DNA of 53,115 nt, taken from contig CACANC010000005.1 of NCBI GenBank assembly GCA_902533755.1, forward strand, positions 1 through 53,115, read 5' to 3'. This stretch comes from an uncultured PS1 clade bacterium (GTDB taxonomy: Bacteria > Pseudomonadota > Alphaproteobacteria > MED-G09). A program made the position numbers and the translations under genes. The notes beneath the pieces are model-generated. The model made no database searches. It had not been told where the DNA came from and saw only the letters and a program-made list of their open reading frames with translations. Every line of letters begins with the position of its first letter. Position 1 is the stretch's first letter. Shown here piece after piece: positions 3,695 to 52,380 of the stretch.

Positions 3695-4378
3695 ATGAAA
3701 AGTAAATTAAAATATATAAATACCTTAGAACAAAAAATTAATTATAATTTTAATAATAAAGATTTGTTAGAAGAAGCATTAACCCATTCAAGCTTCAAAA
3801 ATAAATCTAATTCAAATCAAGAAAGACTTGAATTCTTAGGTGACAGAGTTTTAGGTCTTGTTATTGCGGAATTCCTGTTTAAAAGTTTTTTAAGTGAAAG
3901 AGAAGGTGTTTTGACTAATAAGTTTCGTTACTTAATCCAAAATAAACAATGCACAAAGATTGCAGAAAAATTAGATATTACTAATTATCTTCAGGTTGGT
4001 AATTCTGAAAAAAACAAAATAACTAATTCAATTTTAGCAGACTCCATAGAGGCTCTTTTAGGAGCTATTTATTTGGATGGGGGATATGATGAGTCTAAAA
4101 AAGTAATCTTATCTTTATGGGATGAATATTTGGACAATGATGAAATGCTTAATGCAACTGTGAGTTCAAAAAATATCTTACAAGAGTATTTGCATGCTAA
4201 TAGTTTAACAGAAGCCACTTATTTAGTTATTTCTAAAGATGGAGAAGATCATAATCCTAACTTTCTAGTTGAGGTCTCTGTAGATAAGCTTGGAAAAACA
4301 GATGCTTTTGGAAAATCTATAAAAGAGGCAGAAATTAATGCTGCCAAAAAATTTATTGATGAGTTTGAAATTGGATAA
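3695..4378 (+). CDS. rnc: ribonuclease III
   Basis: NQERLEFLGDRVLGLVIAEFLF signature and a C-terminal dsRBD (KSIKEAEINAAKKFI). Confidence 0.95.
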   Translation: MKSKLKYINTLEQKINYNFNNKDLLEEALTHSSFKNKSNSNQERLEFLGDRVLGLVIAEFLFKSFLSEREGVLTNKFRYLIQNKQCTKIAEKLDITNYLQVGNSEKNKITNSILADSIEALLGAIYLDGGYDESKKVILSLWDEYLDNDEMLNATVSSKNILQEYLHANSLTEATYLVISKDGEDHNPNFLVEVSVDKLGKTDAFGKSIKEAEINAAKKFIDEFEIG

Positions 4379-5273
4379 AATAAGAAAATCAAATATTGTT
4401 GTTAGTATTATTGGTCCCAGTAATTCAGGAAAATCAACATTATTGAACAAAGTTTTAGGTGAAAAAGTTTCTATTGTAAGTCGAAAAGTTCAAACTACTA
4501 GAATGGGATTAAGAGGAATACTCAACAATAATGAAACTCAAATTATTTTTATTGATACCCCTGGTTTGTTTGAAGCTAAAACTATTTTTGAAAAAGCGAT
4601 GGTCGAAAATGCATTTGCTAATTTAAATGATGCCGATCTTATTTATTTTTTAATAGATGGATCAAGAAAGTTAAGTAATTTTGATAAAAAGGTTTTAAAA
4701 TATTTTAAAAACTTTAAAAAAGAAGCTTTTTTAATAATCAATAAAATTGATCTTATTGAAAAAAAACAATTACTTGAAATCACAAATATTATTAATTCAT
4801 ATTTTCCGTTTAAAAAAACATTCTATATTTCTGCAAAAAACAAAGAAGGTATAAATGACTTACTGTTAGAAACAAATCATGAAGCTAATTCTGAAGGATG
4901 GTTGTATCCAGAGGACCAATATACAAATCTCCAAAGCGCCATTCTATGTGAAGAAATAACTAGAGAGAAAATATTTAATCATGTGCATGAGGAGGTTCCT
5001 TATGGCTCAATAGTAAAAACTGATAGCTGGTCAGATAAGAAGAAAGTTTTAAAAATAGGTCAAACTATCTATGTAAAAAAAAATAATCACAAAGGAATTA
5101 TTCTTGGAAAAGAAGGTTCAAAAATAAAAGAAATAGGTACTGCCTCAAGAATTGATTTAGAAAAAATATTCAATAAAAAGATATTTTTAAGTTTAGATGT
5201 AAAAGTAGATAAAAATTGGGATAAAGATCCAAAATATTTCAATAAGCTAGGCCTTGAGGTGAAGAAAAGATAA
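4338..5273 (+). CDS. era: GTPase Era
   Basis: G1 GPSNSGKSTLLN, G3 DTPG, NKID, and a C-terminal KH domain (GKEGSKIKEIG). The start is uncertain; an alternative ATG lies at 4359. Confidence 0.92.
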   Translation: MLPKNLLMSLKLDKIRKSNIVVSIIGPSNSGKSTLLNKVLGEKVSIVSRKVQTTRMGLRGILNNNETQIIFIDTPGLFEAKTIFEKAMVENAFANLNDADLIYFLIDGSRKLSNFDKKVLKYFKNFKKEAFLIINKIDLIEKKQLLEITNIINSYFPFKKTFYISAKNKEGINDLLLETNHEANSEGWLYPEDQYTNLQSAILCEEITREKIFNHVHEEVPYGSIVKTDSWSDKKKVLKIGQTIYVKKNNHKGIILGKEGSKIKEIGTASRIDLEKIFNKKIFLSLDVKVDKNWDKDPKYFNKLGLEVKKR

Positions 5274-6022: not shown

Positions 6023-8227
6023 ATGAATTTAATAGATCAATATAAAGATATAGAAATAGTTGATGCCCTTGAAGAAAGGTACTTAGCATATGCATTAACA
6101 ACGATAATGGATAGAGCTCTTCCCGATGTAAAAGATGGCCTAAAACCAGTACACAGAAGACTTCTTTTTGCAATGAGACAACTAAATTTATCTCCTAATT
6201 CTTCATTTAAAAAATCCGCAAGAATAGTAGGGGAGGTAATGGGAAGATTTCATCCCCACGGTGATCAAGCAATTTATGATACATTGGTAAGATTAGCTCA
6301 AGATTTTTCTGTAAGATGGCCATTAATTAATGGGCAGGGGAATTTTGGGAATATTGATGGCGATAATGCTGCTGCAATGCGTTATACAGAATCAAAATTA
6401 ACTACAATTTCTGAGTTATTATTATCTGGAATTGATGAAGAATCTGTTGATTTTAGATTAACATACGATGAAGTTGATAAAGAGCCTATTGTTTTACCTG
6501 CAAATTTCCCTAATCTTCTTGCAAATGGATCATCAGGAATTGCTGTTGGTATGGCGACATCGATACCTCCGCACAATGTTGAAGAGATATGCAATGCATC
6601 ACTCCATCTTATAAAACATAGAAATATGCATTTTGATAAACTAATTGATTTTATTCCTGGGCCTGATTTTCCTACTGGAGGAGAAATTTTTGAATCTAAA
6701 GATTCAATCCTTAATATTTATAAAACAGGGAAAGGAAATATAAGGATAAGAGCTAAGTGGGAAATTGAAAAAGAAAAAAGAGGGGTATGGAAGATTGTTG
6801 TTAATGAAATACCATACCAAGTTAATAAGGGTAAATTAATTGAAAAAATAGCTCAACTTATTATAGATAAAAAAATACCCATACTTGACGATATTCGTGA
6901 TGAATCTGATGAAAGTATTAGATTAATTTTAGTTCCCAGAAATAGAGATGTAGATCCCGAGCAATTAATGGAAGCTTTATTTAGTCTATCAGATTTAGAA
7001 ACTAGGTTTTCAGTTAATTTAAATGCAATAAACAATAATATACCTAAGGTACACAATCTTCGTGATTTACTTCTTGCTTGGATTGATCACAGAAGGGATG
7101 TGCTTGTAAGAAGAAGTACATTTAAGTTAAATCAAATTAAAACCCGAATGGAAATATTAAGTGGCTATTTAATTGTTTATGTAAATCTTGATGAGGTTAT
7201 CAAAATTATTAGAGAAGAAGATGAGCCAAAAATTAAATTAAAAAAGAAATTTGATTTAAATGATAATCAAGCCAATTCAATTTTAAATATGCGTCTTAGG
7301 TCATTAAGGAAGTTAGAAGAACTAAAAATTAAAGAAGAATATGACTCATTAAAAATAGAGAAATCAATTTTAGGTAAACTAATTAAATCAGATGATATTC
7401 AATGGAAGGAGGTATCAAAAGAAATTAAAGAAATAAAAAAAGATTTTTCTAAAAAAACAGACTTAGGAAAAAGAAGAACAAAAATTAACTATAATGCAGA
7501 AATTTTAGATATTGATCTTAATTTTTCTGAACCTGCAGAACCTATTACTGTTGTCTTATCAAAAGAGGGTTGGATCAAGACACTAAAAGGCCTTGATAAT
7601 GATGTTGCAGAAATTAAATTTAAAGATGGAGATGACTTACTTTTTATTCATGAAACAATGAGTGATGAAAAGCTTTTAATTTTTTCTTCAAATGGAAAAT
7701 TTTATACAATTGATGCAAGTCAACTTCCTTCTGGAAGAGGTTATGGAGATCCGTTAAAGCTCTTAATTGATCTACAAGATGATGATAAAATTATTTCCTT
7801 ATATTCGTTTTCTCAAGCTGGAGAACTAGTTATAGCTTCAAAATTTGGATATGGTTTTATAGTATCTTTTGAGGATTTGATTTCAAATAGAAAAGCTGGA
7901 AAACAAATATTAAACTTATCAAGCGATGATGAGGCTATTAGTTCAGATTATTTAAAAGGAACCAATATTGCGGTTATTGGCGAAAATAAAAAAATGTTAT
8001 TATTTAATCAAGAAGAACTCCCTAGGATGTCAAAAGGCAAAGGAGTTAGACTTCAGAAATATAAAGAAGGAAATCTTAAATCGATTATAAGTTTTAATTA
8101 TAGCGAAGGATTAAACATTGTTGATAATAATGGAAGAAATAGAAATTTTGATGATATTGAAAATTGGCTAGGAAAAAGAGGCCAAGCAGGCAAAAAAGCT
8201 CCTAAGGGCTTTCCTAGAAACTTCTAA
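6023..8227 (+). CDS. parC: DNA topoisomerase IV subunit A
   Basis: 734 aa with [31 protein letters not shown] and AAMRYTE. It is shorter than the gyrA paralog at 38594. Confidence 0.92.
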   Translation: MNLIDQYKDIEIVDALEERYLAYALTTIMDRALPDVKDGLKPVHRRLLFAMRQLNLSPNSSFKKSARIVGEVMGRFHPHGDQAIYDTLVRLAQDFSVRWPLINGQGNFGNIDGDNAAAMRYTESKLTTISELLLSGIDEESVDFRLTYDEVDKEPIVLPANFPNLLANGSSGIAVGMATSIPPHNVEEICNASLHLIKHRNMHFDKLIDFIPGPDFPTGGEIFESKDSILNIYKTGKGNIRIRAKWEIEKEKRGVWKIVVNEIPYQVNKGKLIEKIAQLIIDKKIPILDDIRDESDESIRLILVPRNRDVDPEQLMEALFSLSDLETRFSVNLNAINNNIPKVHNLRDLLLAWIDHRRDVLVRRSTFKLNQIKTRMEILSGYLIVYVNLDEVIKIIREEDEPKIKLKKKFDLNDNQANSILNMRLRSLRKLEELKIKEEYDSLKIEKSILGKLIKSDDIQWKEVSKEIKEIKKDFSKKTDLGKRRTKINYNAEILDIDLNFSEPAEPITVVLSKEGWIKTLKGLDNDVAEIKFKDGDDLLFIHETMSDEKLLIFSSNGKFYTIDASQLPSGRGYGDPLKLLIDLQDDDKIISLYSFSQAGELVIASKFGYGFIVSFEDLISNRKAGKQILNLSSDDEAISSDYLKGTNIAVIGENKKMLLFNQEELPRMSKGKGVRLQKYKEGNLKSIISFNYSEGLNIVDNNGRNRNFDDIENWLGKRGQAGKKAPKGFPRNF

Positions 8228-43419: not shown

Positions 43420-44518
43420 ATTTAAGTTTAAAGTATTAAAAAAAGATGGCTATGCCCGCAAAGGTCTTATTGAAACCAAAAGAGGCAATATTAAAACACC
43501 TGCATTTATGCCTATAGCTACTCAAGGGGCAGTTAAGTTTACTCCGATAGAGTTTATAGAACAGATTGGATATGAATTAACGCTCTCAAATACCTATCAC
43601 TTATTATTAAGACCTGGATTAGAAAAGCTTTCTAGTATTGATGGTATTTCAGAGTTTATGGGATGGAATAAGCCCGTGTTAACAGACTCTGGAGGCTTTC
43701 AGGTGATGTCTCTATCAAAATTAAGAAAAATATCTGAAGAGGGAGTAAAATTCCAATCTCATATTGATGGAACATCACATTTTTTGACTCCTGAAAATGT
43801 AATTGATTATCAGAATATAATTAAGTCTGATATTCAAATGGTTTTAGATGAATGCATTCAATACCCCGAAACTTACGAAAATGTTAAAAAGTCAATGGAG
43901 CTGTCACTCAGATGGGCTGAGAGATCCAGAAAATATTATAATGAAAATAAAATTTATGGAGCTCAATTTGGAATAATTCAAGGAGGTGTATTTGAAGATT
44001 TAAGAGAGATATCAATTTCTGAAACAGTTAATTTTGATTTTGAGGGATATGCTATCGGCGGACTAGCTGTTGGTGAAGGTCATAAAAAAATGATTGAGGT
44101 TGTTGATTATACTGCTCCTCAATTACCTGAAGATAAGGTGAGATATCTGATGGGGGTTGGAAAACCTAATGATATTATTGAGGCAGTTTATAGAGGTATT
44201 GATATTTTTGATTGTGTTATCCCAACCAGAGAAGGAAGACATGGTATCGCTTATATTGGTTCTAGCTCTATTAATATAAAGAATTCTAAATTTGAGAATG
44301 ATTTAACTCCGTTAGATAAAGGCAGTGATTACTTTGTTTCAAAAAAATATTCAAAAAGTTATTTAAATCATTTGTTAAAAATTAAAGACCCTTTAGGACC
44401 AATGTTAATTTCTCTTCATAATCTTAATTATTACTTCAATTTGATGACTGATCTAGGAATATCCATTGAAGAAGGTAGATTAGATAGTTTTCGAGAAGAT
44501 TTTTATAAGGATAATTAA
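43412..44518 (+). CDS. tgt: tRNA-guanine transglycosylase
   Basis: TPAFMPIATQGAVK...LTDSGGFQV...GGLAVGE. Confidence 0.95.
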   Translation: MDKFKFKVLKKDGYARKGLIETKRGNIKTPAFMPIATQGAVKFTPIEFIEQIGYELTLSNTYHLLLRPGLEKLSSIDGISEFMGWNKPVLTDSGGFQVMSLSKLRKISEEGVKFQSHIDGTSHFLTPENVIDYQNIIKSDIQMVLDECIQYPETYENVKKSMELSLRWAERSRKYYNENKIYGAQFGIIQGGVFEDLREISISETVNFDFEGYAIGGLAVGEGHKKMIEVVDYTAPQLPEDKVRYLMGVGKPNDIIEAVYRGIDIFDCVIPTREGRHGIAYIGSSSINIKNSKFENDLTPLDKGSDYFVSKKYSKSYLNHLLKIKDPLGPMLISLHNLNYYFNLMTDLGISIEEGRLDSFREDFYKDN

Positions 44519-44694
44519 TCTTGTGAGGACTCTTTGCTGTCTTCTTTATCAATTTTAGCGGCTTTTACGCATTCTTCTCTTTCAACTCCCGCAGCTGTGC
44601 AAATTAATTCACCTGCAACAGGAATTTCCTCTTTTACTGACGAACAAGAAGTTAACAGTAAAAAAACAAATAAAGAAAAAAAATAGCTTTTCAT
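44515..44694 (-). CDS. small lipoprotein
   Basis: MKSYFFSLFVFLLLTSCSS lipobox. The track ORF extends to 44721; the ATG at 44694 gives a canonical signal peptide. Confidence 0.6.
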   Translation of the reverse strand: MKSYFFSLFVFLLLTSCSSVKEEIPVAGELICTAAGVEREECVKAAKIDKEDSKESSQD

Positions 44695-44804
44695 AAATGC
44701 CCTCTTTTTTGAAATTAGCATATTTAAATGAAATTCAAAATATCTTAATTTTAATCGATTTTATTTGATTTGACCTTAGCAAACATTTAAAAGGTATCTT
44801 GTGT

Positions 44805-44880
44805 GGGCCCGTAGCTCAGTAGGTAGAGCACCTCCCTTTTAAGGAGATTGTCACAGGTTCGATCCCTGTCGGGCTCACCA
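44805..44880 (+). tRNA. tRNA-Lys (anticodon UUU), CCA encoded
   Basis: Manual cloverleaf. Acceptor GGGCCCG/CGGGCTC, D arm GCTC-AGTAGGTA-GAGC, anticodon arm CCTCC-CTTTTAA-GGAGA (one C-A mismatch at 27:43), variable loop TTGTC, T arm ACAGG-TTCGATC-CCTGT, discriminator A, then CCA. Confidence 0.93.
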
Positions 44881-44881
44881 T

Positions 44882-44911
44882 CCTTAAACCAAGGTCAGCC
44901 TTAGTTTTAAG
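44882..44911 (+). terminator. Hairpin immediately 3' of tRNA-Lys (possible tRNA terminator or processing element), conserved in all long module copies
   Basis: CCTTAAACCAAGG-TCAG-CCTTAGTTTTAAG followed by a T-rich stretch. In copy C (48872-48901) a C-to-T change converts the C-A mismatch into a T-A pair. Confidence 0.45.
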
Positions 44912-44948
44912 AAATTTTCCACTCAAATTATATTTCCTGAATTTATAA

Positions 44949-44970
44949 GTTTTCGCAAAGTTTTCGCAAA
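44949..44970 (+). promoter_or_regulatory. Tandem 11-bp direct repeat GTTTTCGCAAA x2 (candidate protein-binding site)
   Basis: Exact tandem duplication with 11-bp periodicity. The same position in other module copies carries variant pairs. Confidence 0.5.
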
Positions 44971-45021
44971 AAAATTTGTGCTAGGTGAAAAAAGAGATAA
45001 GATTTACTCTGGAGCTAACAA

Positions 45022-45630
45022 ATGACAAAGATAGTATATGTTTTAACAAACCCCGCAATGCCTGGCTATGTAAAGATTGGAAAAACAGATAACCTAGTGG
45101 AAAGATTAAAGAGTCTTGATAGAACATCCACTCCTTTGCCTTTTCAGTGTGAATATGCAGCCGAGGTTAATGATGCAGACAAAGTTGAGAAGATTCTTCA
45201 TGATATTTTTGCTGATAAACGCGTAAGAACGAATAGAGAGTTTTTTGAAGTAGACCCTCACCAGATAATTCGTGCCTTCGATCTGCAGGATCATAAAGAT
45301 GTTACGCCAAAAGATGATATCTTTGAAACTGAAGAAGATAAAAAAGCAGTTTTTAAAAAGACTGAATTAAGATCGAGGTTCAATTTTGAAATGGTTAAAA
45401 TTAAACCCGGAATAGAATTATATTTTGCAAAAGATGAAAATATTAAATGTATAGTTAAAGATAAATTTCAGATAGAATTTGAGGGTGAAATACAATCTTT
45501 ATCTCAATCAGCTAAGATAATAATGGATAGACTTGGTTATAATTGGAAACAAATACAGGGTCCCGGCTATTGGATGTATGATAATGAAACTCTTCACGAA
45601 AGAAGAATAAGAATGGAAACCAATGAATAA
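45022..45630 (+). CDS. T5orf172 / GIY-YIG-superfamily (MUG113-like) domain protein with a small C-terminal domain of unknown function (DUF4357-like pattern)
   Basis: N-terminus IVYVLTNPAMPGYVKIGKTDNLVERLKSL...EKILHDIFADKRVRTNREFFEV fits the T5orf172 pattern. C-terminal part: IEFEGEIQSLSQSAKIIMDRLGYNWKQIQGPGYWMY. Confidence 0.75.
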   Translation: MTKIVYVLTNPAMPGYVKIGKTDNLVERLKSLDRTSTPLPFQCEYAAEVNDADKVEKILHDIFADKRVRTNREFFEVDPHQIIRAFDLQDHKDVTPKDDIFETEEDKKAVFKKTELRSRFNFEMVKIKPGIELYFAKDENIKCIVKDKFQIEFEGEIQSLSQSAKIIMDRLGYNWKQIQGPGYWMYDNETLHERRIRMETNE

Positions 45631-45632
45631 AT

Positions 45633-46967
45633 ATGTTTGAGGACTGGCTTAAAAAAGAAAAGAACTTAACAAACACATCTATATCTAAATATTTAAGTGC
45701 TATAGAAAAAATTAATTCTGATTTATTGAGTAAAGAAATTATAAAATCCTCTATTGAAGATTTAAATGAATATGAATTAAGAAAAATAAAGAATAATTAT
45801 TTTAATATCCCTGAAATAGAAGAATTAGATAGCAAAGGTCATAGAATGTATTCTGTGGCATTCAATCATTATATTTCTTACAAAGTCTCTTATAAAACTA
45901 AAATTAAAAATGAAAGCCTAGGTTATGTTTTAAAAGAAATTATTACTAAATATCCCGACGCAATTAAAGAACCAATTCACAATCATAGTTTAGCTGCATT
46001 TATCAGAACAACTGCAGTAGAAATTATCAAAAGTAATCTACCTGAAAAATTTAAATCATTTAAAGTAAAGGGATCAGCTGGAGAAGGGCGATGGATTGGT
46101 ACAGGGAAATCAGAAAGAAATCCATGGATTGCTGTATTAAATAAGAATATCACTAGTGGTGCATCTAAAGGGTACTACACAACTTATTCGTTCATTCATA
46201 AAAGTGATTTTATAATATTAAGTGTTGCTCAATCTGATCAAGAGATGGAATCTAAATATTCTAATAATAAAATTCCTAAGGTTTTGAATAATTATGCAGA
46301 TCTTATGAGGTTACAGCTAAATTCAAAAAAATATTCAAAATTCGACTCAGGTATCCCAGAGGTACTGGATAAAAATGGAGATAAGTTATTTTTAAATCGT
46401 ATTGGTGCGGTTTATCATAAAAAGTATAATATAAATGAACTTCCAAGCGATAAAGAGTTAAAGGAAGACCTTTCTTTAATGTTAGAAGCTTATTGGGATA
46501 TTTATAAAAATGGTGGACGACCAGGTTTAGAAAATGAAATAATTCAAAATAACGAATTCGATCCTAACAATATTGATTCTGAAAAAGAAAAAGTTCTTAG
46601 AAGTGTCACCTATAGAAGAGGTCAAAAAAAATTTCGTGATAACCTTCTTAGAGCATATGATTCAGAATGTGTGATGTCTGGATGTAGGGAAGAAGAGGTA
46701 TTACAAGCAGCGCATATTCTTCCATATACTGATGCTGAAACAAATAAGATAGATAACGGGTTACTTTTAAGAGCTGATCTTCATAACTTATTTGATTTAG
46801 ATTTAATATCAATTAATCCTAAAGATTTTACTATTTTAGTTTCAAGAGAGATTAAGGATTCAGATTATATAAAATTACATGGAAAAGAAATAAAGATGCC
46901 CAAGAGTAAAATTAAAAGTCCTAGTAAAAAAGCTTTAAAAATACATTTTAAGAATTTTAAGGGGTAA
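45633..46967 (+). CDS. three-part protein with an N-terminal helical domain, a DUF3578 (McrB N-terminal-like DNA-binding) domain and a C-terminal HNH nuclease; putative Type IV (modification-dependent) restriction-like enzyme
   Basis: FKVKGSAGEGRWIGTGKSERNPWIAVLNKN...GYYTTYSF resembles the DUF3578 core. C-terminus: YRRGQKKFRDNLLRAYDSECVMSGCREEEVLQAAHILPY...NGLLLRADLHNLFDLDLISI, an HNH_2-type motif. It starts 2 nt after the upstream stop. Confidence 0.75.
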   Translation: MFEDWLKKEKNLTNTSISKYLSAIEKINSDLLSKEIIKSSIEDLNEYELRKIKNNYFNIPEIEELDSKGHRMYSVAFNHYISYKVSYKTKIKNESLGYVLKEIITKYPDAIKEPIHNHSLAAFIRTTAVEIIKSNLPEKFKSFKVKGSAGEGRWIGTGKSERNPWIAVLNKNITSGASKGYYTTYSFIHKSDFIILSVAQSDQEMESKYSNNKIPKVLNNYADLMRLQLNSKKYSKFDSGIPEVLDKNGDKLFLNRIGAVYHKKYNINELPSDKELKEDLSLMLEAYWDIYKNGGRPGLENEIIQNNEFDPNNIDSEKEKVLRSVTYRRGQKKFRDNLLRAYDSECVMSGCREEEVLQAAHILPYTDAETNKIDNGLLLRADLHNLFDLDLISINPKDFTILVSREIKDSDYIKLHGKEIKMPKSKIKSPSKKALKIHFKNFKG

Positions 46968-46968
46968 G

Positions 46969-47050
46969 TTCCTTATTAGGAAGAGTGTCACATTCTAACT
47001 TAATTTATCAAAAAATATGATGAATAGTTTTCGCAAAGTTTTCGCAAAAA
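46969..47050 (+). repeat. Degenerate, internally deleted boundary module (E1): tRNA core-like TTAGGAAGAGTGTCAC plus GTTTTCGCAAA x2
   Basis: 46976-46991 resembles the tRNA segment TTAAGGAGATTGTCAC. 47027-47048 is identical to the tandem motif of copy A. About 75% identical by eye to 50262-50331. Confidence 0.7.
47027..47048 (+). promoter_or_regulatory. Tandem 11-bp direct repeat GTTTTCGCAAA x2
   Basis: Exact tandem, identical to 44949-44970. Confidence 0.5.
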
Positions 47051-47177
47051 TAGTTTTACTACATCTTTTTTACTCTTTTCTACTCTTTCGTTTTTTTAAT
47101 ACTAAACATAGGGTTTACTTAGGTTTCAAGGTAAATAACTGTATTTATTAAACATATAAAATATACTACACCAATGG

Positions 47178-47417
47178 CTTTTAAGGAGATTGTCACAGGT
47201 TCGATCCCTGTCGGGCTCACCATCCTTAAACCAAGGTCAGCCTTAGTTTTAAGAGATTTTCCACTCAAATTATATTTATCTAATTTCTTGGTTTCCGCAA
47301 AGTTTCCGCAAAAAAATTTGTGCTAGGTGAAAAAAGTATTACTCTTTGGTTAGCAAGGAGGAACTTATGAAGAAAGTTTTATTAGGTTTAGTTATCGCCG
47401 TAATGATGACTGGTAGT
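47178..47417 (+). repeat. Boundary module copy B: orphan tRNA-Lys 3' half plus leader, RBS and the first 17 codons of a lipoprotein signal peptide
   Basis: 47178-47222 is identical to tRNA positions 32-76. Similarity to copy C continues through AAGGAGGAACTTATGAAGAAAGTTTTATTAGGTTT...ATGATGACTGG. Confidence 0.9.
47291..47312 (+). promoter_or_regulatory. Tandem 11-bp direct repeat GTTTCCGCAAA x2 (variant)
   Basis: Both units carry the same T-to-C change relative to copy A. Confidence 0.5.
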
Positions 47418-47438
47418 GGGAATAGTTTAAGGAACTAA
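47367..47438 (+). pseudogene. Orphan 5' fragment (signal peptide only) of the NTF2-like lipoprotein gene
   Basis: MKKVLLGLVIAVMMTGSGNSLRN*. The first 17 residues are near-identical to the N-terminus of the 49014 gene, after which the sequence diverges and stops. Confidence 0.7.
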
Positions 47439-47446
47439 TAAGTTAA

Positions 47447-48193
47447 ATGAGCGGAACAATAACTCTTTTAATTATTCTTCTTGCTACTCTAAGTACAGCA
47501 TTTTTGTCGTCAATTTTTGGAATGTTAGGCGGCCTCATTTTAATAGGTGTATTGATTACTATAATGCCTGTAAGTCAGGCAATGGTCTTACATGGATTAA
47601 TTCAATTAACATCAAATGGTTATCGAGCATGGCTTAATAAAACAGATATTAAATGGAATATTGTTTCTACATTAATTATCGGTAATATTATCTCACTAGT
47701 TTGTTTATTCTCATTAGCTTTTGTACCTGATAAAATAACTGTACTTTTAGTATTAGGTTTATTGCCATACATAGCTTGGGCGATTCCTAAAAATAACTCC
47801 TTAGATGTAAGCAAAAAACCAATTGGTATTTTAGCTGGCATGGTGGTGGTGGGTAGTAATCTTCTATCTGGTACAGGAGGCCCTTTATTAGATATTTTTT
47901 TCCAGCGAGTAAATATGAATCGCCATCAGGTTGTTGCAACCAAAGCTGTAGCTCAAAGTTTAGGCCATATATCTAAGATAATATTTTTTGGTTTTCTTAC
48001 AACATCTAAATTTAATACTTGGCCAAGTTTTTGGCTAATTTTTTTTGCTGTGATAGCTTCTGTTATCGGAACTACTTTAGGAAAAATAATATTAGATAAA
48101 ATTGACGATAGAACCTTCTTTGTATGGACACAAAGCATCTTACTAACTATTGGTGCTGTGTTTATAGCCTATGCACTCTATCTAATGAAATGA
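47447..48193 (+). CDS. TauE/SafE (TSUP, DUF81) family anion exporter
   Basis: 248 aa, about 7-8 TM segments, with glycine-rich motifs FGMLGGLILIGVL and GSNLLSGTGGPLL typical of the family. Confidence 0.75.
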   Translation: MSGTITLLIILLATLSTAFLSSIFGMLGGLILIGVLITIMPVSQAMVLHGLIQLTSNGYRAWLNKTDIKWNIVSTLIIGNIISLVCLFSLAFVPDKITVLLVLGLLPYIAWAIPKNNSLDVSKKPIGILAGMVVVGSNLLSGTGGPLLDIFFQRVNMNRHQVVATKAVAQSLGHISKIIFFGFLTTSKFNTWPSFWLIFFAVIASVIGTTLGKIILDKIDDRTFFVWTQSILLTIGAVFIAYALYLMK

Positions 48194-48261
48194 GCTATAT
48201 AAGGAAGGTTTAATACTTACAGAGATTGGAGCAAAGAAACTGATGCAACTGTTTTTTTATA

Positions 48262-48798
48262 TCAATTTTCAAAATTACCCTCTAAAGGCCAGGGATCGCA
48301 TTTATATTCTTTTTCACCAAAAAAATCAGTCAAAGTATCTTTATTTCTATCGTAAAACCAAACTGCAATAATATTTTCTATTTTTAAATCTGGAGTAGGA
48401 GTTAAAGGTTGATTGCAATAGGTTATCACATCATGAATATGATCCTCTAGATGAGTATTAGAAAGGCAATTTGGATCTGCATGTTCTTTGATATATTGAA
48501 GCTTTCCTGAAACTCTCTCTTGAACCCTGAAATGAAGATATGTATCCCCATTATATTTTTCTAATAACAAAACTACATAACGGCTTTCATGATTTTGTGC
48601 GCATCTGAGCATATGACTTAGAGAGAAATTATTTAAATCTTGTTTTGCGTAAGCTCTATTGTTTAAAAAGAAATAAGCAATAAGGGATAGGAAAAGTAAA
48701 ATTATAAGTGAAATTAAGCCACCCTTTATAATTTGCCTCCAAAACATTCCTACAAGAATTAATGTTACTATTATTATTAAAACTGTCATTATATTCAT
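48262..48798 (-). CDS. hypothetical membrane-anchored protein (2 N-terminal TM segments plus a Cys-containing soluble domain)
   Basis: Long ORF with a hydrophobic N-terminus and 4 Cys in the C-terminal domain. I recognise no family. Confidence 0.55.
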   Translation of the reverse strand: MNIMTVLIIIVTLILVGMFWRQIIKGGLISLIILLFLSLIAYFFLNNRAYAKQDLNNFSLSHMLRCAQNHESRYVVLLLEKYNGDTYLHFRVQERVSGKLQYIKEHADPNCLSNTHLEDHIHDVITYCNQPLTPTPDLKIENIIAVWFYDRNKDTLTDFFGEKEYKCDPWPLEGNFEN

Positions 48799-48825
48799 AT
48801 ATCAATAAATAAACCCAATATCTAT

Positions 48826-49064
48826 CTTTTAAGGAAATTGTCACAGGTTCGATCCCTGTCGGGCTCACCATCCTTAAACTAAGGCCAGCCTTAGTTTCAA
48901 GAGATTTTCCACTCAAAATATATTTATCTAATTCTTTGGTTTGCACAAGGTTTGCACAAAAAATTTGTGCTAGGTAAAAAAAGAGTTACTCTTTGGTTAA
49001 CAAGGAGGAACTTATGAAGAAAGTTTTATTAGGTTTGGTTATCGCCTCAATGATGACTGGAAGT
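48826..49064 (+). repeat. Boundary module copy C: orphan tRNA-Lys 3' half plus leader, here joined to a full-length lipoprotein gene (probably the ancestral tRNA flank)
   Basis: 48826-48870 matches tRNA positions 32-76 with 1 mismatch (GGAGA to GGAAA). The hairpin, tandem motif, TTTGTGCTAGGT box and RBS are all present. Confidence 0.9.
48939..48960 (+). promoter_or_regulatory. Tandem 11-bp direct repeat GTTTGCACAAG / GTTTGCACAAA (variant)
   Basis: Both units share the GCAC core change relative to copies A and B. Confidence 0.5.
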
Positions 49065-49457
49065 ATTTATGCATGCAAAACGCCTGAAGAGTTAATGGAT
49101 AATTATTTTAATGACTTTAGTTCTGGCGATATAAAAAAAGTTGAGAGAAATTATTCATTTCCATTAATCGTTATTCAAAACGGTAATAAAACCATTCACG
49201 ATGAAATTTCAACTTTTTTAAATTTTAAAGAAATTAAAAAAACTGGATGGAAAGAGTCAGTTATTAATTCAGTAATGATTATTTTAAAAAAAGATAAATC
49301 AGCTGTTACACAAGTGAATTTTTCAAGAGTTAATAACAAGGGTGATATATATTTAACAACAGATGCAAATTATATTCTTATAAAAGAAGATGAAGATTGG
49401 TACATCTCAGGAGTAATTATTGATAGCGATGTTCCACTTGGTATAGAAAATTATTAA
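49014..49457 (+). CDS. exported or lipoprotein-type NTF2-like (SnoaL/DUF4440-like) protein
   Basis: MKKVLLGLVIASMMTGSIYAC signal or lipobox-like sequence. AAGGAGGA lies 6 nt upstream of the ATG. Paralog of the 51208 gene (shared ending DEDWYISGVI versus DEEWLISGVF). Confidence 0.7.
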   Translation: MKKVLLGLVIASMMTGSIYACKTPEELMDNYFNDFSSGDIKKVERNYSFPLIVIQNGNKTIHDEISTFLNFKEIKKTGWKESVINSVMIILKKDKSAVTQVNFSRVNNKGDIYLTTDANYILIKEDEDWYISGVIIDSDVPLGIENY

Positions 49458-49530
49458 GGGAAATCGGATATTTAGAATATAGTCTGTTATATTTTAATGC
49501 TTGGTCTACATTGTGTGATTAGGAGGATTT

Positions 49531-50223
49531 TTAAGGTTTAAGTATTTTATTTAAATCTCTTACTTCTTTATCAACCATACAGATGGCATCAATTATTGTA
49601 GCGTTAGGGGAATCCTCTATCCTATACATCCATATATTATCACTTTTTTCAGTTAACTCTATTTCTTCACCATCACCCATTAAACCCGAGTAACCGAAGA
49701 TACGAACAGACCTCATTCTAAACTTATTACAATCTATTTGATTTAAAAATTTTACAGATTTGAAATCCTTCTCTTGTGTAGAGGTATCATGCATTGTGAT
49801 AATGTATCTAATATTATTATGTCGAGCGTAACTATTAAGATCAATATATACTTTGACACCATCTTTACTCTCACCTAATAATTCCCAAATTTCTGGATAG
49901 GTTTCCGCCTTAATCTTTAAATTATATTGTTCACTTACACTCGCAATACCACCAATATTTGTTGCATTGGTATAACCAAGTTCATCTAAGATTACTTTTG
50001 CTCTACCTGATCTATTACCGCTTCTGCAATACAATAAAATTTCTTCATCTTTTGAAATTTCATAATTTTCGATATCAGTTTTAATCTCTGATAAGGGAAT
50101 ATGAATAGCACCTTCTATATGCCCAGCATTCCATTCTTCATCAGTTCTAACATCTATCATTACGGAATAAGCATTCCCACTAAACCCAAATATCAAAACT
50201 AACGCTATAAGTATTTTATTCAT
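49531..50223 (-). CDS. periplasmic rhodanese-domain protein fused to a C-terminal domain of unknown function (adhesin-E-like pattern, tentative)
   Basis: Signal peptide MNKILIALVLIFGFSGNAYS. Rhodanese segment IDVRTDEEWNAGHIEGAIHIP...LLYCRSGNRSGRA with the active-site Cys loop. An about 120-aa C-terminal extension contains 2 Cys. Confidence 0.75.
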   Translation of the reverse strand: MNKILIALVLIFGFSGNAYSVMIDVRTDEEWNAGHIEGAIHIPLSEIKTDIENYEISKDEEILLYCRSGNRSGRAKVILDELGYTNATNIGGIASVSEQYNLKIKAETYPEIWELLGESKDGVKVYIDLNSYARHNNIRYIITMHDTSTQEKDFKSVKFLNQIDCNKFRMRSVRIFGYSGLMGDGEEIELTEKSDNIWMYRIEDSPNATIIDAICMVDKEVRDLNKILKP

Positions 50224-50261
50224 TAGAAAAATATAGCATAAAAAAATAAACCTGCGGCCAT

Positions 50262-50331
50262 TTCCTTATTAAGGAGAGTGTCAAACCTTAAATTAATTTA
50301 TAGATAAACATGATGACTATTTTTAACAAAG
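50262..50331 (+). repeat. Degenerate, internally deleted boundary module (E2): core-like TTAAGGAGAGTGTCA
   Basis: 50269-50283 matches the tRNA segment TTAAGGAGATTGTCA at 14/15 positions. The overall stretch is about 75% identical by eye to 46969-47038. Confidence 0.65.
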
Positions 50332-50443
50332 AGAATTTAGTTGTTACTATTGAATTTTTTAAAGAAAACACCAAATATAGTATATCATTCAAGTAGTAAG
50401 ATAATTCTTACAAAATGCCCTAATTTTCGTAATAGGAGTATTT

Positions 50444-51052
50444 ATGAAAAGAATTTGTTTAATATTTGGTCACCACAATACAAAAGACTCTTTTAATGCT
50501 GCTATAAGAGATGCTTTCATTGATGAGGCTGAAAAAATTGGTCATAAAATTGATCTAATAAATTTGTTCGATGAAGAAGAACAATTACCTTTTTACAGAA
50601 CAGATATTAATCCTCCTCCGCAAAAAGTACTAGATTATAGAGAAAGACTTGAAAAATCTGATGTTATGTTTTTGATGAGTGCATGTCATAATTTAAGAAT
50701 GAGTGGAATTACAGAAAATTGGATTGATTGGGTTTTACATCCAAAATGGTTCTTTTCATATAGATCGCTTTTACCCGATAGTAAATTTTTTGGGAACTAC
50801 GGTTATCCAGTTCCAGGCGCTATGAAAAATAAAATTGGAGTAGTTTCTATGACTTATGGAGGCCCAATGATAAGTTATTTTAACTTTTCCTTGTTTGATA
50901 ACATTCCATACAGAAGATTAAAAAAATCTGTTTTTTCTTTGGGCGGTTTAAAAATTAAATATTTAAGATTTTACTCTGTTCTTCCAATCATGACTAAAAA
51001 AATGTTTGATAAAAATATAAAAAAAGTAAGAAAATTTGCTCAAAGTTTATGA
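50444..51052 (+). CDS. flavodoxin-like fold NAD(P)H-dependent oxidoreductase (Flavodoxin_2 / quinone reductase-like)
   Basis: MKRICLIFGHHNTKDSFNAAIRDAFIDEAEKIGHKIDLINLF...ERLEKSDVMFL resembles the N-terminus of MdaB/KefG/NQO-type proteins. Confidence 0.7.
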   Translation: MKRICLIFGHHNTKDSFNAAIRDAFIDEAEKIGHKIDLINLFDEEEQLPFYRTDINPPPQKVLDYRERLEKSDVMFLMSACHNLRMSGITENWIDWVLHPKWFFSYRSLLPDSKFFGNYGYPVPGAMKNKIGVVSMTYGGPMISYFNFSLFDNIPYRRLKKSVFSLGGLKIKYLRFYSVLPIMTKKMFDKNIKKVRKFAQSL

Positions 51053-51055
51053 TAA

Positions 51056-51095
51056 GAGTAACTTATGAAGAAAGTTTTATTAGGTTTAGTCATTG
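51056..51095 (+). repeat. Leader-only fragment (D) of the boundary module: RBS-proximal sequence plus the first signal-peptide codons
   Basis: AACTTATGAAGAAAGTTTTATTAGGTTTAGT is identical to the copy B segment 47362-47392. Confidence 0.75.
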
Positions 51096-51181
51096 TAATA
51101 ATTATGGCAATATTATTCTTATTTTTTGGTAATTGGCTGGACGAACTAAAACATCTAATTAATGTCAATCATGTTCACTAA
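51065..51181 (+). CDS. 38-aa hydrophobic peptide whose first 9 codons derive from the repeated leader; may be a remnant rather than a gene
   Basis: MKKVLLGLVIVIIMAILFLFFGNWLDELKHLINVNHVH*, from manual translation. Confidence 0.3.
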   Translation: MKKVLLGLVIVIIMAILFLFFGNWLDELKHLINVNHVH

Positions 51182-51207: not shown

Positions 51208-51675
51208 ATGAAAAAAATTTTATTAAGTTTAGTCATGACTTTAATAATGACGGCTAATGGATACGCAGATGAAATTGAAATTAAAAAAATAAAAGATAAA
51301 CATGATACTTATTATAAATACCTTTTTGAAAATGATATGAATAGTTTGGCTAAATTATTCTCTTTCCCCGCCGTTTTTAAGGGGTTCGTAAATGAAGTCC
51401 AAATTGCAAAAAATAAAAAAGAAATAAAAAATATCTACGAAAACCTTATTAAAGCAGCCCCTCAATCAAAATTTGCTAACAAAGGTATAAATTATACCGA
51501 AATAAACACAAAAGTTGAAAATAAATCAATTTTTAAAATGCGTGAAGATACATATATGCTTATAGTAAAGTATACTCAGAGTGATAAAAAAGATAATTCA
51601 TTAATTTTTTCTGGAAGAGCATCATATTTATTTATAAAAGATGATGAAGAGTGGTTAATATCAGGTGTATTTTAG
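51208..51675 (+). CDS. exported NTF2-like protein, paralog of 49014..49457
   Basis: MKKILLSLVMTLIMTANGYA signal peptide. Same length class and C-terminal DEEWLISGVF. GGAG lies upstream of the ATG at 51208. Confidence 0.7.
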   Translation: MKKILLSLVMTLIMTANGYADEIEIKKIKDKHDTYYKYLFENDMNSLAKLFSFPAVFKGFVNEVQIAKNKKEIKNIYENLIKAAPQSKFANKGINYTEINTKVENKSIFKMREDTYMLIVKYTQSDKKDNSLIFSGRASYLFIKDDEEWLISGVF

Positions 51676-51769
51676 CTCTATAATGATAAATATCCTCAAA
51701 AAATAATGTATCAAATCGATTAAACTAAAATATTATAAAAGAATTTTCATAACTGATCAGGAGAAAATA

Positions 51770-52018
51770 ATGAATTTATCTATGGAACTAACAGCTTATC
51801 CATTGGAAGACAAATATCTTCCAGTAATAGAAAAATATATTGAACATTTAAGAGGTTATAAAAAAATTAAGCTAGAAGTCTTTCCGACTTGTTCAGTATT
51901 ATTTGGCAAACATGATGATGTTGTGGAAGCATTAAGCTCATCAATCAAGTGGAGTGTTGAGCATAAAAATAAAGTTGTCTTTATATCTAAATTTTTACCA
52001 AATTATGAAGCAATATAA
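51770..52018 (+). CDS. small hypothetical protein (possibly YkoF/MTH1187-like fold, tentative)
   Basis: 82 aa with GGAG upstream. The pattern ELTAYPLED..LPVIEKYIEHLR...LEVFPTCSVLFGKHDDVVEAL recalls DUF77-type proteins but is unverified. Confidence 0.5.
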   Translation: MNLSMELTAYPLEDKYLPVIEKYIEHLRGYKKIKLEVFPTCSVLFGKHDDVVEALSSSIKWSVEHKNKVVFISKFLPNYEAI

Positions 52019-52029
52019 AGGAGAATAAC

Positions 52030-52380
52030 ATGAAAGGCGCTAAGGAAATTATTGAAACTTTTTGGAAAATCCAAGATGGAGGAGATTATACTAAGGTGGT
52101 AGAATTATTTGCAGAAGATGCTGTTTTAGTTGATCCCTTTTTTGGAACATTTGAGGGTAAAAAAGCAATTGGAGGATTTATGAAGAAAATGAACAAAGAA
52201 ATGACCTCAAGAGAGACAAGTTTTATTGCAAAAGAAATAGATGGAGGCGGGGAGGTTGCTTGGGCACAATGGACTGCTAAAACTCCAAATGGGGATGTAG
52301 AAGGCTGTGGTTTATATAGAGTCAAGAATGGAATGATGACTTATTATAAAGACTATATGAATGCGCCTAAAGAGAACTAA
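52030..52380 (+). CDS. SnoaL-like / NTF2-superfamily protein
   Basis: IIETFWKIQDGGDYTKVVELFAEDAVLVDPFFGTFEGKKAIGGFM...GCGLYRVKNGMMTYYKDY. Confidence 0.75.
   Translation: MKGAKEIIETFWKIQDGGDYTKVVELFAEDAVLVDPFFGTFEGKKAIGGFMKKMNKEMTSRETSFIAKEIDGGGEVAWAQWTAKTPNGDVEGCGLYRVKNGMMTYYKDYMNAPKEN

Follow-up and report, generated by a model that had tools for sequence, protein, structure and literature searches.

How do small gene cassettes come to be stacked behind a tRNA gene where no recombinase is encoded? This question is raised by a 53,115-nt stretch of DNA from an uncultured marine alphaproteobacterium of the PS1 clade (contig CACANC010000005.1), hereafter the window, whose coordinates are used throughout. 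An intact tRNA-Lys(UUU) at 44805-44880 (+ strand), the only tRNA-Lys(UUU) found by ARAGORN and Rfam, is followed by an island of unrelated genes between which parts of the same tRNA recur. An initial annotation, made from the sequence alone, read these copies as scars of integration. Our analysis indicates that the repeated modules are lambda-type attachment sites homologous to those of a family of uncultured, integrase-bearing temperate phages, and that tandem 11-nt repeats (11-mers) in their arms are predicted arm-type sites for the phage integrases.

Attachment sites shared with phages

A 45-nt segment, tRNA position 32 through the 3' end, is present in three copies on the + strand, with no matches expected from 100 shuffles. 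The first (T3 copy 1, tRNA positions 32-76, 44836-44880) lies within the tRNA itself and forms the core identity block and putative attL core. Copy 2, the putative attR core of cassette A, is an orphan half at 47178-47222 that matches at 45/45 positions with no mismatches, and the orphan copy 3 at 48826-48870 matches at 44/45, with A for G at 48836. The two long orphan copies starting at position 32 are thus as first described. The repeat itself was described as the tRNA 3' half, which is indeed present, but it continues well past the half into an arm, over 159-245 nt: the three copies have 159 nt in common (94% and 80% identity), the stretch common to copies 2 and 3 reaches ~245 nt, and each copy runs on into a right arm of 120-200 nt, here called S. 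This extended repeat holds a hairpin, a tandem 11-mer pair, a ribosome-binding site and ~17 signal-peptide codons.

The exact 45-nt core was also found as an orphan, without a tRNA, in two IMG/VR contigs, L051 and L052. L051 is siphovirus-like, with tape-measure, distal tail and tail-fibre genes, and a Phage_integrase gene lies 350 nt past its core on the right side. From left to right, its attachment region comprises the end of a 99-residue open reading frame (ORF), GTATTCACAAA in two copies, the window-matching stretch including the tRNA half, 64 nt, the pair GTATTCACAAG/GTATTCACAAA, a small ORF, and a 449-residue tyrosine integrase. The type I left (P) arm that precedes copy 2 (47010-47177, + strand) is, together with its tRNA half, 93.9% identical to the L051 attP (window 47010-47222, over 213 nt), and in alignment it is closely matched by the left arm of a further phage contig, L057. 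In L052 both the left arm and the 11-mer family are different, with TTTTCCGTCTT twice on both arms, and the contig matches the window at copy 3 (48807-48873, 94% over 67 nt): its last ~20 nt before the half correspond to the copy 3 junction, a 19-nt type II left-arm remnant (48807-48825, + strand), and to contig L031. The identity blocks of both phage types start at tRNA position 32. The homology to L051 and L052 implies that the repeated modules are phage attachment sites of at least two types. By sequence homology, each module is a lambda-type attachment site made up of a 45-nt core, a left (P) arm and a right (P'-like, S) arm. The initial view of the orphan halves as scars of site-specific integration, with crossover in the block from anticodon loop to 3' end, is therefore strengthened by homology to the attP of integrase-bearing phages, and the same homology supports its suggestion of serial accretion by a trans-acting or lost recombinase.

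The left arm preceding copy 2 (~170-240 nt; 46939-47177) has counterparts of ~240 nt before orphan halves in L020, L027, L028, L036 and L040. It comprises three parts: an 'm' segment (46939-47026, + strand), a tandem 11-mer pair, and ~130 nt leading up to the tRNA half. The pair, GTTTTCGCAAA in two copies at 47027-47048, begins 151 nt before the core, as in the phage. Other cassettes have the conserved 'm' segment too, likewise placed left of the phage-type arm; phages lack it. A second 'm' segment (50229-50331, + strand) lacks 11-mers and phage arm, and is linked to the rhodanese gene in most relatives. Both hold a pseudo anticodon stem-loop (46969-46995 and 50262-50293), which is similar to tRNA positions ~22-50, the 5' anticodon-stem strand among them; this structure reads GACCACCTCC TTATTAA GGAGAGTGTCACA and is also seen at L004 7960, L020 14208 and in others. 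Within it lies the short core TTAAGGAGAKTGTCA, at 46976-46990 (two mismatches) and 50269-50283 (none), with five matches in all against 0.24 expected. Two short degenerate tRNA copies had been reported at these points. The core is there, but since the short copies include the 5' anticodon-stem strand, they are not displaced halves starting at position 32, and the first is no independent scar, being the left end of copy 2's left arm. Searches of viral contigs with the right arm S or the pseudo-anticodon segment returned no hits or chance matches in coding sequence.

The right arms follow a common plan, in which the 11-mer pair sits 68 nt past the tRNA half. S1, the right (P'-type) arm of cassette A (44881-45015, + strand), carries GTTTTCGCAAA twice at 44949-44970, preceded by a terminator-like hairpin (44889-44904) and a promoter-like TTAAGA-16-TATATT (44907-44934). 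S2, the right arm of cassette B (47223-47438, + strand), carries GTTTCCGCAAA twice at 47291-47312, and S3 (48871-49013, + strand) carries GTTTGCACAAG/GTTTGCACAAA at 48939-48960. A promoter and terminator scan gave counts not above those of shuffled sequence, and the conserved TTAAGA-16-TATATT of the right arm was the sole element noted. An Rfam search of the island found nothing beyond the tRNA. The hairpin after each tRNA half (44889-44904, 47231-47246, 48879-48894 and homologues) is followed by a T run and varies in a compensatory manner (CCAAGG/CCTTGG, CTAAGG/CCTTAG, CTAATG/CATTAG); it probably serves as the terminator of the rebuilt tRNA, provided by the right arm. Further to the right, the nucleotide sequences of the ribosome-binding site and the signal-peptide start (MKKVLLGLVIA...) are highly similar in genes that are otherwise unrelated, at 47367-47438, 49014-49070, 51065-51110, 51208-51250 and L020 11614. 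Upstream of the TauE gene this shared leader survives only as a truncated ORF of 23 codons within S2 (MKKVLLGLVIAVMMTGS..., 47367-47438, + strand). Recombination breakpoints fall within the leader.

Arm-site 11-mers and the integrase N-terminus

The 11-mers take the form GT-x6-AAA. There are 15 variants among 29 island modules, and the two units of a pair are almost always identical. In every phage attP whose two arms were legible, namely those of L051/L053, L054, L055, L057, L059, L062, L064/L065, L072 and L052, the core is flanked by an 11-mer pair on either arm, ~150 nt before it on the left and ~65 nt after it on the right. Integrases with the N-terminal motif MKGK.HTFWQVD are accompanied by GTAT(T/C)CACAAA (L051, L055, L059 and L072), those with VKGIKYPYWIVD by GTTTCTGCAAA (L054), those with VKGIIYVYWSVD by GTTTTCGCAAA (L057), and those with VKGFKYNNWTVD by GTTGTGCCAAA (L062). 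The integrases of L051 and L054 are 64% identical over residues 1-45 and 98.3% identical over residues 46-449, and their 11-mers differ; those of L051 and L055 are 80% and 65.8% identical over the same two regions, and their 11-mers are the same. The N-terminus of protein P0007 is shared with P0008, so GTTGTGCCAAA was predicted for P0007. The prediction was confirmed in L064/L065, despite a different backbone and core tRNA.

The L051 integrase matches Phage_integrase (2e-18) and, weakly, Arm-DNA-bind_4. Integrase identity to cultured relatives of the phage does not exceed 32%. An AlphaFold model of P0002 places a three-stranded sheet and a helix at residues 3-59, and aligns over its full length (~455 columns) only with full-length lambda Int (1z1b/1z1g). 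Together with the sequence matches, the model identifies the phage integrase as a three-domain, lambda-type enzyme with a predicted N-terminal arm-binding domain. As the 11-mers co-vary with the first ~45 integrase residues, they are predicted to be arm-type integrase sites. A precedent exists in Cluster K mycobacteriophages, where two pairs of 11-bp arm-type repeats flank a tRNA/tmRNA core and co-vary with the Int N-terminus, and a terminator lies between the core and the right-hand sites (PMC3203893). Other readings of the 11-mers, as a target-site duplication or excision footprint, or as lox-like crossover spacers, an RNA pairing element or gene-conversion products, were dropped given the pairs on both phage attP arms and the co-variation with the N-terminus.

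The same 11-mers label the island cassettes. Each of the five phage 11-mer types is found again among the 15 of the island, and the cassette A pair GTTTTCGCAAA, at both its right arm (44949-44970) and its left arm (47027-47048), is identical to the pair of phage L057. Left-end and right-end 11-mers agree in four of the five cassettes sequenced at both ends (window A, L027, L028 and L040), an outcome with a chance probability of 6e-4.

Across the phages (L051/L053, L054, L055, L057, L059, L062, L064/L065 and L072; proteins P0001-P0019), the N-terminal ~45 residues and the four 11-mers are swapped as a set between near-identical backbones, and the same integrase N-terminal module is also found on backbones just 52-66% identical. 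This looks like modular swapping of arm-binding specificity, and we infer that a contiguous attP-int 'specificity module' is exchanged by recombination. The same 11-mer arrangement, with arms that are conserved in part, surrounds different core sequences in L062 (1200-1250), L055 (2782-2826), L059 and L064. One alternative core comes from the 3' part of a tRNA whose loop reads CTTCTAA (Arg-UCU-like), and the others correspond to a different tRNA-Lys variant; the occurrence of different cores within one phage family implies that the family has been retargeted to other tRNAs or hosts.

Island borders, cassettes and turnover

The island spans 44881 to ~52018, with both borders inside the window. 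The window has a G+C content of ~30%, and its tgt product is 92-95% identical to homologues in OCS116/PS1-clade single amplified genomes (SAGs) and metagenome-assembled genomes (MAGs). A SAR11 origin, which that G+C content had suggested, was discarded because tgt shows 95% identity to the OCS116/PS1 SAGs. To the left of tRNA-Lys lie uvrA, ssb, gyrA, coaD, a peptidyl-prolyl isomerase gene, queA and tgt; a 59-68-residue ORF with a signal-peptide-like N-terminus (44515-44721, - strand) overlaps the end of tgt on the opposite strand, is annotated as a gene in related assemblies and matches no family. The right border is marked by a comparison with L001, an essentially empty site in which the tRNA, one right arm S, orf38, SnoaL and cspA follow consecutively, supplying the empty-site allele that the initial annotation had suggested seeking. 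In L001 orf38, a 38-residue membrane peptide (51065-51181, + strand), is the first gene after the tRNA and right arm, and therefore marks the old right border. Two more variable genes, absent from L001, occupy 51208-52018 (+ strand), namely an NTF2-like gene (51208-51675) and an 82-residue ORF (51770-52018), before the conserved core flank of SnoaL and then cspA starts at 52030.

A conventional integrase-bearing element just beyond the window had been raised as a possible explanation of the whole region. The right-flank genes of L001 all lie inside the window, directly after the island, which rules this out. Recombinases were sought in the 53-kb window and in related loci of at most 21 kb. Profile searches of the window found none between the tRNA and the window end, as the annotation had stated, nor any among the upstream ORFs tested, where the ten of plausible recombinase size are housekeeping genes. 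No integrase, excisionase or transfer genes were detected among cargo proteins by Pfam, PADLOC or NCBIfam, and no replication module (helicase/primase) or packaging-hijack genes were present among the cassette proteins. A sub-threshold Phage_int_SAM_5 match at the N-terminus of the MrcB_N/HNH protein (E=0.005) was not read as a recombinase; the same domain occurs at the C-terminus of a helicase-nuclease in L027.

Cassette A (44881-47222) has a core and an 11-mer-bearing arm at both ends (44836-44970 and 47010-47222), as do cassettes in L027, L028 and L040. It encodes a T5orf172 protein (45022-45630, + strand; PADLOC candidate system PDC-S57, E=7e-72) and a restriction-like MrcB_N+HNH protein (45633-46967, + strand), for which an exact-sequence look-up gave no record. 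Cassette B carries a TauE-family permease (47447-48193, + strand) and an unannotated membrane protein (48262-48798, - strand). A lipoprotein of the NTF2-like (DUF6841) kind, beginning with the shared leader (49014-49457, + strand), and a rhodanese/Adhesin_E protein (49531-50223, - strand) come next, then a flavodoxin-like/flavin mononucleotide reductase gene (50444-51052, + strand) that is variable among relatives and has no bounding tRNA halves. The cargo of each interval, with T5orf172 and MrcB_N+HNH for the nuclease pair, is thereby as first described. The proposal that the array divides the whole region into cassettes does not hold for every interval, the exceptions being the flavodoxin and rhodanese intervals, which are not bounded by tRNA halves. 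The sites show a gradient of decay away from the tRNA: A is complete, B keeps 19 nt of a type II left arm, and cassette C has no right-end site, the 'm' segment at 50229-50331 having neither 11-mers nor arm. The tRNA-proximal, newest cassettes carry candidate anti-phage genes in the window, in L027 (an Mrr_cat_2+ResIII helicase, 774-residue ORF) and in L040 (an MrcB_N protein, 6913-8010). No homologue of the island proteins was found in the phage DNA examined.

Cassette content varies among relatives from the empty site to other combinations, in line with the expectation of the initial annotation. The TauE cassette is joined straight to the tRNA in L003, L021 and L045; L004, L044 and L046 have other short arrays; and cargo other than that of the window follows tgt-tRNA-Lys in L004, L020, L027, L040, L042 and L044. 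Metagenome contigs contributed further cassettes, several with restriction-like genes. The SAG L020 is 99.97% identical to the window over 10 kb upstream of the island and 99.3% downstream, and its seven small ORFs between the tRNA and copy 3 differ from those of the window. Near-identical flanks around different cargo indicate that cassette turnover is recent, on very short time scales. The two sequences diverge from 9 nt past the tRNA (44890) to 49037, in the leader. L020 itself has two right arms identical over ~150 nt with different hairpins, and L045 and the window S2 differ solely in the spacer-plus-11-mer block. L040 differs from L042 by a single additional unit, inserted exactly at the core, and the resident right arm with its own 11-mer is kept after the orphan half. 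Moreover, the window and the tRNA-TauE arrangement of L003, L021 and L045 differ by exactly the unit that holds cassette A, so this arrangement is the expected allele without cassette A. Across lineages in which tgt and queA are only 70-73% identical, identity reaches 84% in the left arm and 90% in the right arm.

In L044 (4054-4240) and L046, whose orf38 is the same, the right arm breaks off at ~45 nt and is fused to the 3' end of the rhodanese gene, whose product has 220 residues as opposed to 230; this fusion is evidence of illegitimate deletion within the island. In L023, from a more distant lineage, two complete tRNA-Lys genes (4304-4379 and 6408-6481), 2.1 kb apart, flank a cassette, and a second tRNA (Glu-like) lies just before the second tRNA-Lys copy.

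Origin of the array and its relation to known systems

The observations above make it fairly probable that the island was built by phage-type integration at one tRNA gene, and that the locus is a hotspot of phage integration at tRNA-Lys. That its units are integrase-less cassettes mobilised in trans, akin to cis-mobilisable elements (CIMEs), seems to us a little better than an even proposition; the mobility itself is what we infer. Insertions would proceed serially at the intact tRNA by means of an integrase, with the newest unit next to the tRNA, and each inserted circle would carry an attP composed of left arm, core and right arm. The core-bounded differences between L040 and L042, and between the window and the tRNA-TauE arrangement, are the product expected of such integrase-mediated circle insertion. 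Cassette A would be a complete integrase-less unit whose attL and attR arms carry identical GTTTTCGCAAA, and an infecting or resident phage that supplies the cognate integrase can probably still excise and integrate it in trans, in the manner of a CIME or satellite. Cassettes B and C would be older, and the truncation or loss of their left arms implies that they are fixed. After insertion, RecA-type recombination between right arms or leaders, along with deletion, may remove, swap and fuse cassettes, which explains the mosaic arrays found among strains. A plausible route is integration at the core, then RecA-mediated deletion between right arms, which would account for swapped 11-mers beside unchanged cargo.

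Several observations weigh against this account. No circular junction or excised form was found, and there were no terminal overlaps in 22 metagenome contigs, with L028 carrying a different right arm at each of its two ends. The searches for lysogens, through integrase homologues and eight context look-ups, gave phage contigs in attP form only, and none of the 21 integrase homologues came from an NCBI genome. The S arm and the phage right arm show no more than distant similarity, and S is found in none of the sequenced phages. The hosts of the phages are suggested by core identity alone. Just five cassettes were sequenced at both ends, and matched end 11-mers are also expected from any single decayed element. 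Some breakpoints lie off the core, as seen for the window and L020 at 49037 in the leader, for the spacer-plus-11-mer difference between L045 and S2, and for the fusion of right arm and rhodanese gene in L044. To judge from these junctions, homologous and illegitimate recombination clearly contribute.

The strongest rival is that the units are dead scars, the remnants of complete prophages or integrative elements that lost their integrase and nearly all other content by deletion and no longer move by site-specific recombination, with strain differences arising only from deletion and from homologous recombination with the DNA of other strains. We regard it as unlikely, though it accounts for much: no integrase, excisionase or circular form was found in ~50 related loci; the left arms of cassettes B and C are truncated or missing; the segment replaced between the window and L020 ends in the leader, off the core; the right arms are mosaic; streamlined genomes delete fast; and matched 11-mers can be inherited from a single ancestral element. 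However, the right arm is of the S type, which is not what a prophage of the sequenced phages would have left beside the tRNA, and no phage gene fragment remains in any cassette. Full arms with cognate 11-mers are kept in four of five cassettes while adjacent sequence has been replaced, and across lineages the arms have diverged less than core genes. The same non-phage junctions, with 'm' to the left of the P arm and the right arm and leader opposite, are common to cassettes that differ in cargo and 11-mers. Independent deletions would not recreate these common junctions, which therefore favour a cassette family over independent prophage wrecks.

A chromosomal cassette system of integron-like or other kind, in which a host recombinase encoded elsewhere (e.g. 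of Xer type) exchanges cassettes at tRNA-derived sites, is very improbable. Small-cassette arrays without a recombinase in cis do resemble integron arrays, and Acinetobacter pdif modules are similar in this respect. The sites here, though, are not attC- or dif-like, but long lambda-type attachment sites with arms homologous to phage attP. Moreover, the 11-mers follow the N-terminal domains of phage integrases, the three 11-mer types in one array would require three specificities, and no integrase homologue came from an NCBI genome. Least credible of all is an array without any site-specific step, made of tandem duplications of the tRNA-proximal region, homology anchors for RecA or assembly artefacts: at 159-245 nt, the repeats have the length that homologous recombination needs, the module is where many metagenome contigs break off, and L023 has its two complete tRNA-Lys copies, yet the sharp left boundary at position 32 coincides with the attP identity-block boundary of two phage types, the left arms are phage DNA and not duplicated chromosome, and the same structures recur in independent SAGs, MAGs and metagenomes of different projects, which also settles the concern over assembly artefacts that the initial annotation had raised.

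Phage-type integration with trans-mobilised cassettes bears comparison with several known systems. Additive flexible genomic islands, in which small cassettes lie next to a tRNA, have been described in Alteromonas, 'Ca. Actinomarinales' and 'Ca. Methylopumilus' (PMC4898812, PMC7771536, PMC10872708). They share with this island a fixed tRNA-adjacent location, small cassettes that vary in number even among near-identical strains, partial-tRNA direct repeats after cassettes, the usual lack of an integrase, and hosts among streamlined marine or freshwater plankton; here, too, the chromosomal position is the same, the content is variable, and partial-tRNA direct repeats are present. Given these reports, small integrase-less cassettes are less unusual than first supposed. 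The published accounts note a tRNA fragment only (e.g. 20 bp), with the recombinase unknown there, whereas here we find two arms, arm-type sites, a terminator hairpin and a tie to a phage integrase family. An uncharacterised exchange mechanism, which the initial annotation had entertained, is not needed.

Streptococcal CIMEs (PMC5704250) likewise keep attL and attR, lack integration and transfer genes, and lie in tandem with other elements at the 3' ends of genes, including tRNA-Lys, where they arise by accretion. In cassette A both att ends are present, and integrase, excisionase and transfer genes are absent. CIMEs derive from integrative conjugative elements (ICEs) or from integrative and mobilisable elements, and move in cis after integration of an adjacent ICE; the cassettes here, in contrast, have phage-type attachment sites, units of 2-3 kb and no conjugation, and a phage integrase acting in trans would drive any mobilisation. 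A complete parent element bearing an S-type arm was not found. The cassettes thus fit the definition of CIMEs except in origin and mode of transfer.

The phage sites themselves are close to known lambda-type attP (lambda; L5, Giles, Cluster K; PMC3203893, PMC4880445), which also have a core in the 3' part of a tRNA or tmRNA, paired 11-bp repeats on both arms, a stem-loop terminator, N-terminus co-variation and a three-domain integrase fold. The phage loci L051-L072 have a core identical to a tRNA 3' part, repeats on both arms and a three-domain integrase. What differs here is the presence of at least five phage and 15 island arm-site variants on otherwise near-identical backbones, and the persistence of these sites on integrase-less chromosomal cassettes.

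Less close are three other systems. Prochlorococcus tycheposons (bioRxiv 10.1101/2020.12.28.424599) are also marine and tRNA-targeted, with tandem insertions between partial tRNAs, newcomers that push older elements inward, degenerate remnants, and cargo for defence and niche adaptation. They encode a tyrosine or serine recombinase of their own together with a replication module, and span 4-200 kb, none of which applies here; the likeness to tycheposons drawn in the initial annotation therefore fails for want of an integrase and a replication module. Integrons also gather serial small cassettes that lack a recombinase of their own, with the newest at the primary site and a tyrosine recombinase acting in trans. 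Here there is no intI, attI or attC hairpin, the ~400-bp lambda-type attachment site is made of tRNA and phage arms, and promoter-like and ribosome-binding sequences come with the cassettes themselves. Phage satellites (phage-inducible chromosomal islands (PICI), P4-like elements, PICI-like elements (PLE) and phage-inducible chromosomal minimalist islands (PICMI)) are likewise small, helper-dependent chromosomal elements, often with defence genes. Known satellites encode an integrase, regulators and packaging functions, and these cassettes encode none of them. As these defining features are lacking, the cassettes are not tycheposons, integrons or classical satellites. What is new here is the resolved architecture of the attachment sites, the identification of the phage integrase family, and an arm-site code common to phages and integrase-less cassettes.

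A further reading, possible but doubtful, is that the cassettes form a phage-dependent system resembling an integron, in which integrase-less units of 2-3 kb, often with defence genes, each retain a full lambda-type attachment site and carry 11-mers as an address code that matches one of the many swappable integrase N-termini of a temperate phage family. If true, phages and hitch-hiking cassettes would co-evolve lock-and-key sites, and phage integrases would be shared machinery that moves small cassettes through streamlined marine bacteria without mobile-element genes of their own. More generally, much of the difference in gene content among strains of abundant, streamlined marine bacteria resides in tRNA-adjacent additive islands. 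Integrases are rare in such genomes, and the recombination machinery has so far gone unnamed; here the sites are traced to a sequenced family of phage integrases. The code linking 11-mers to integrase N-termini predicts which phage should move which cassette, and a search for phage attP arms around tRNA fragments could be applied to other tRNA islands. Overall, defence genes appear to ride on attachment sites borrowed from phages.

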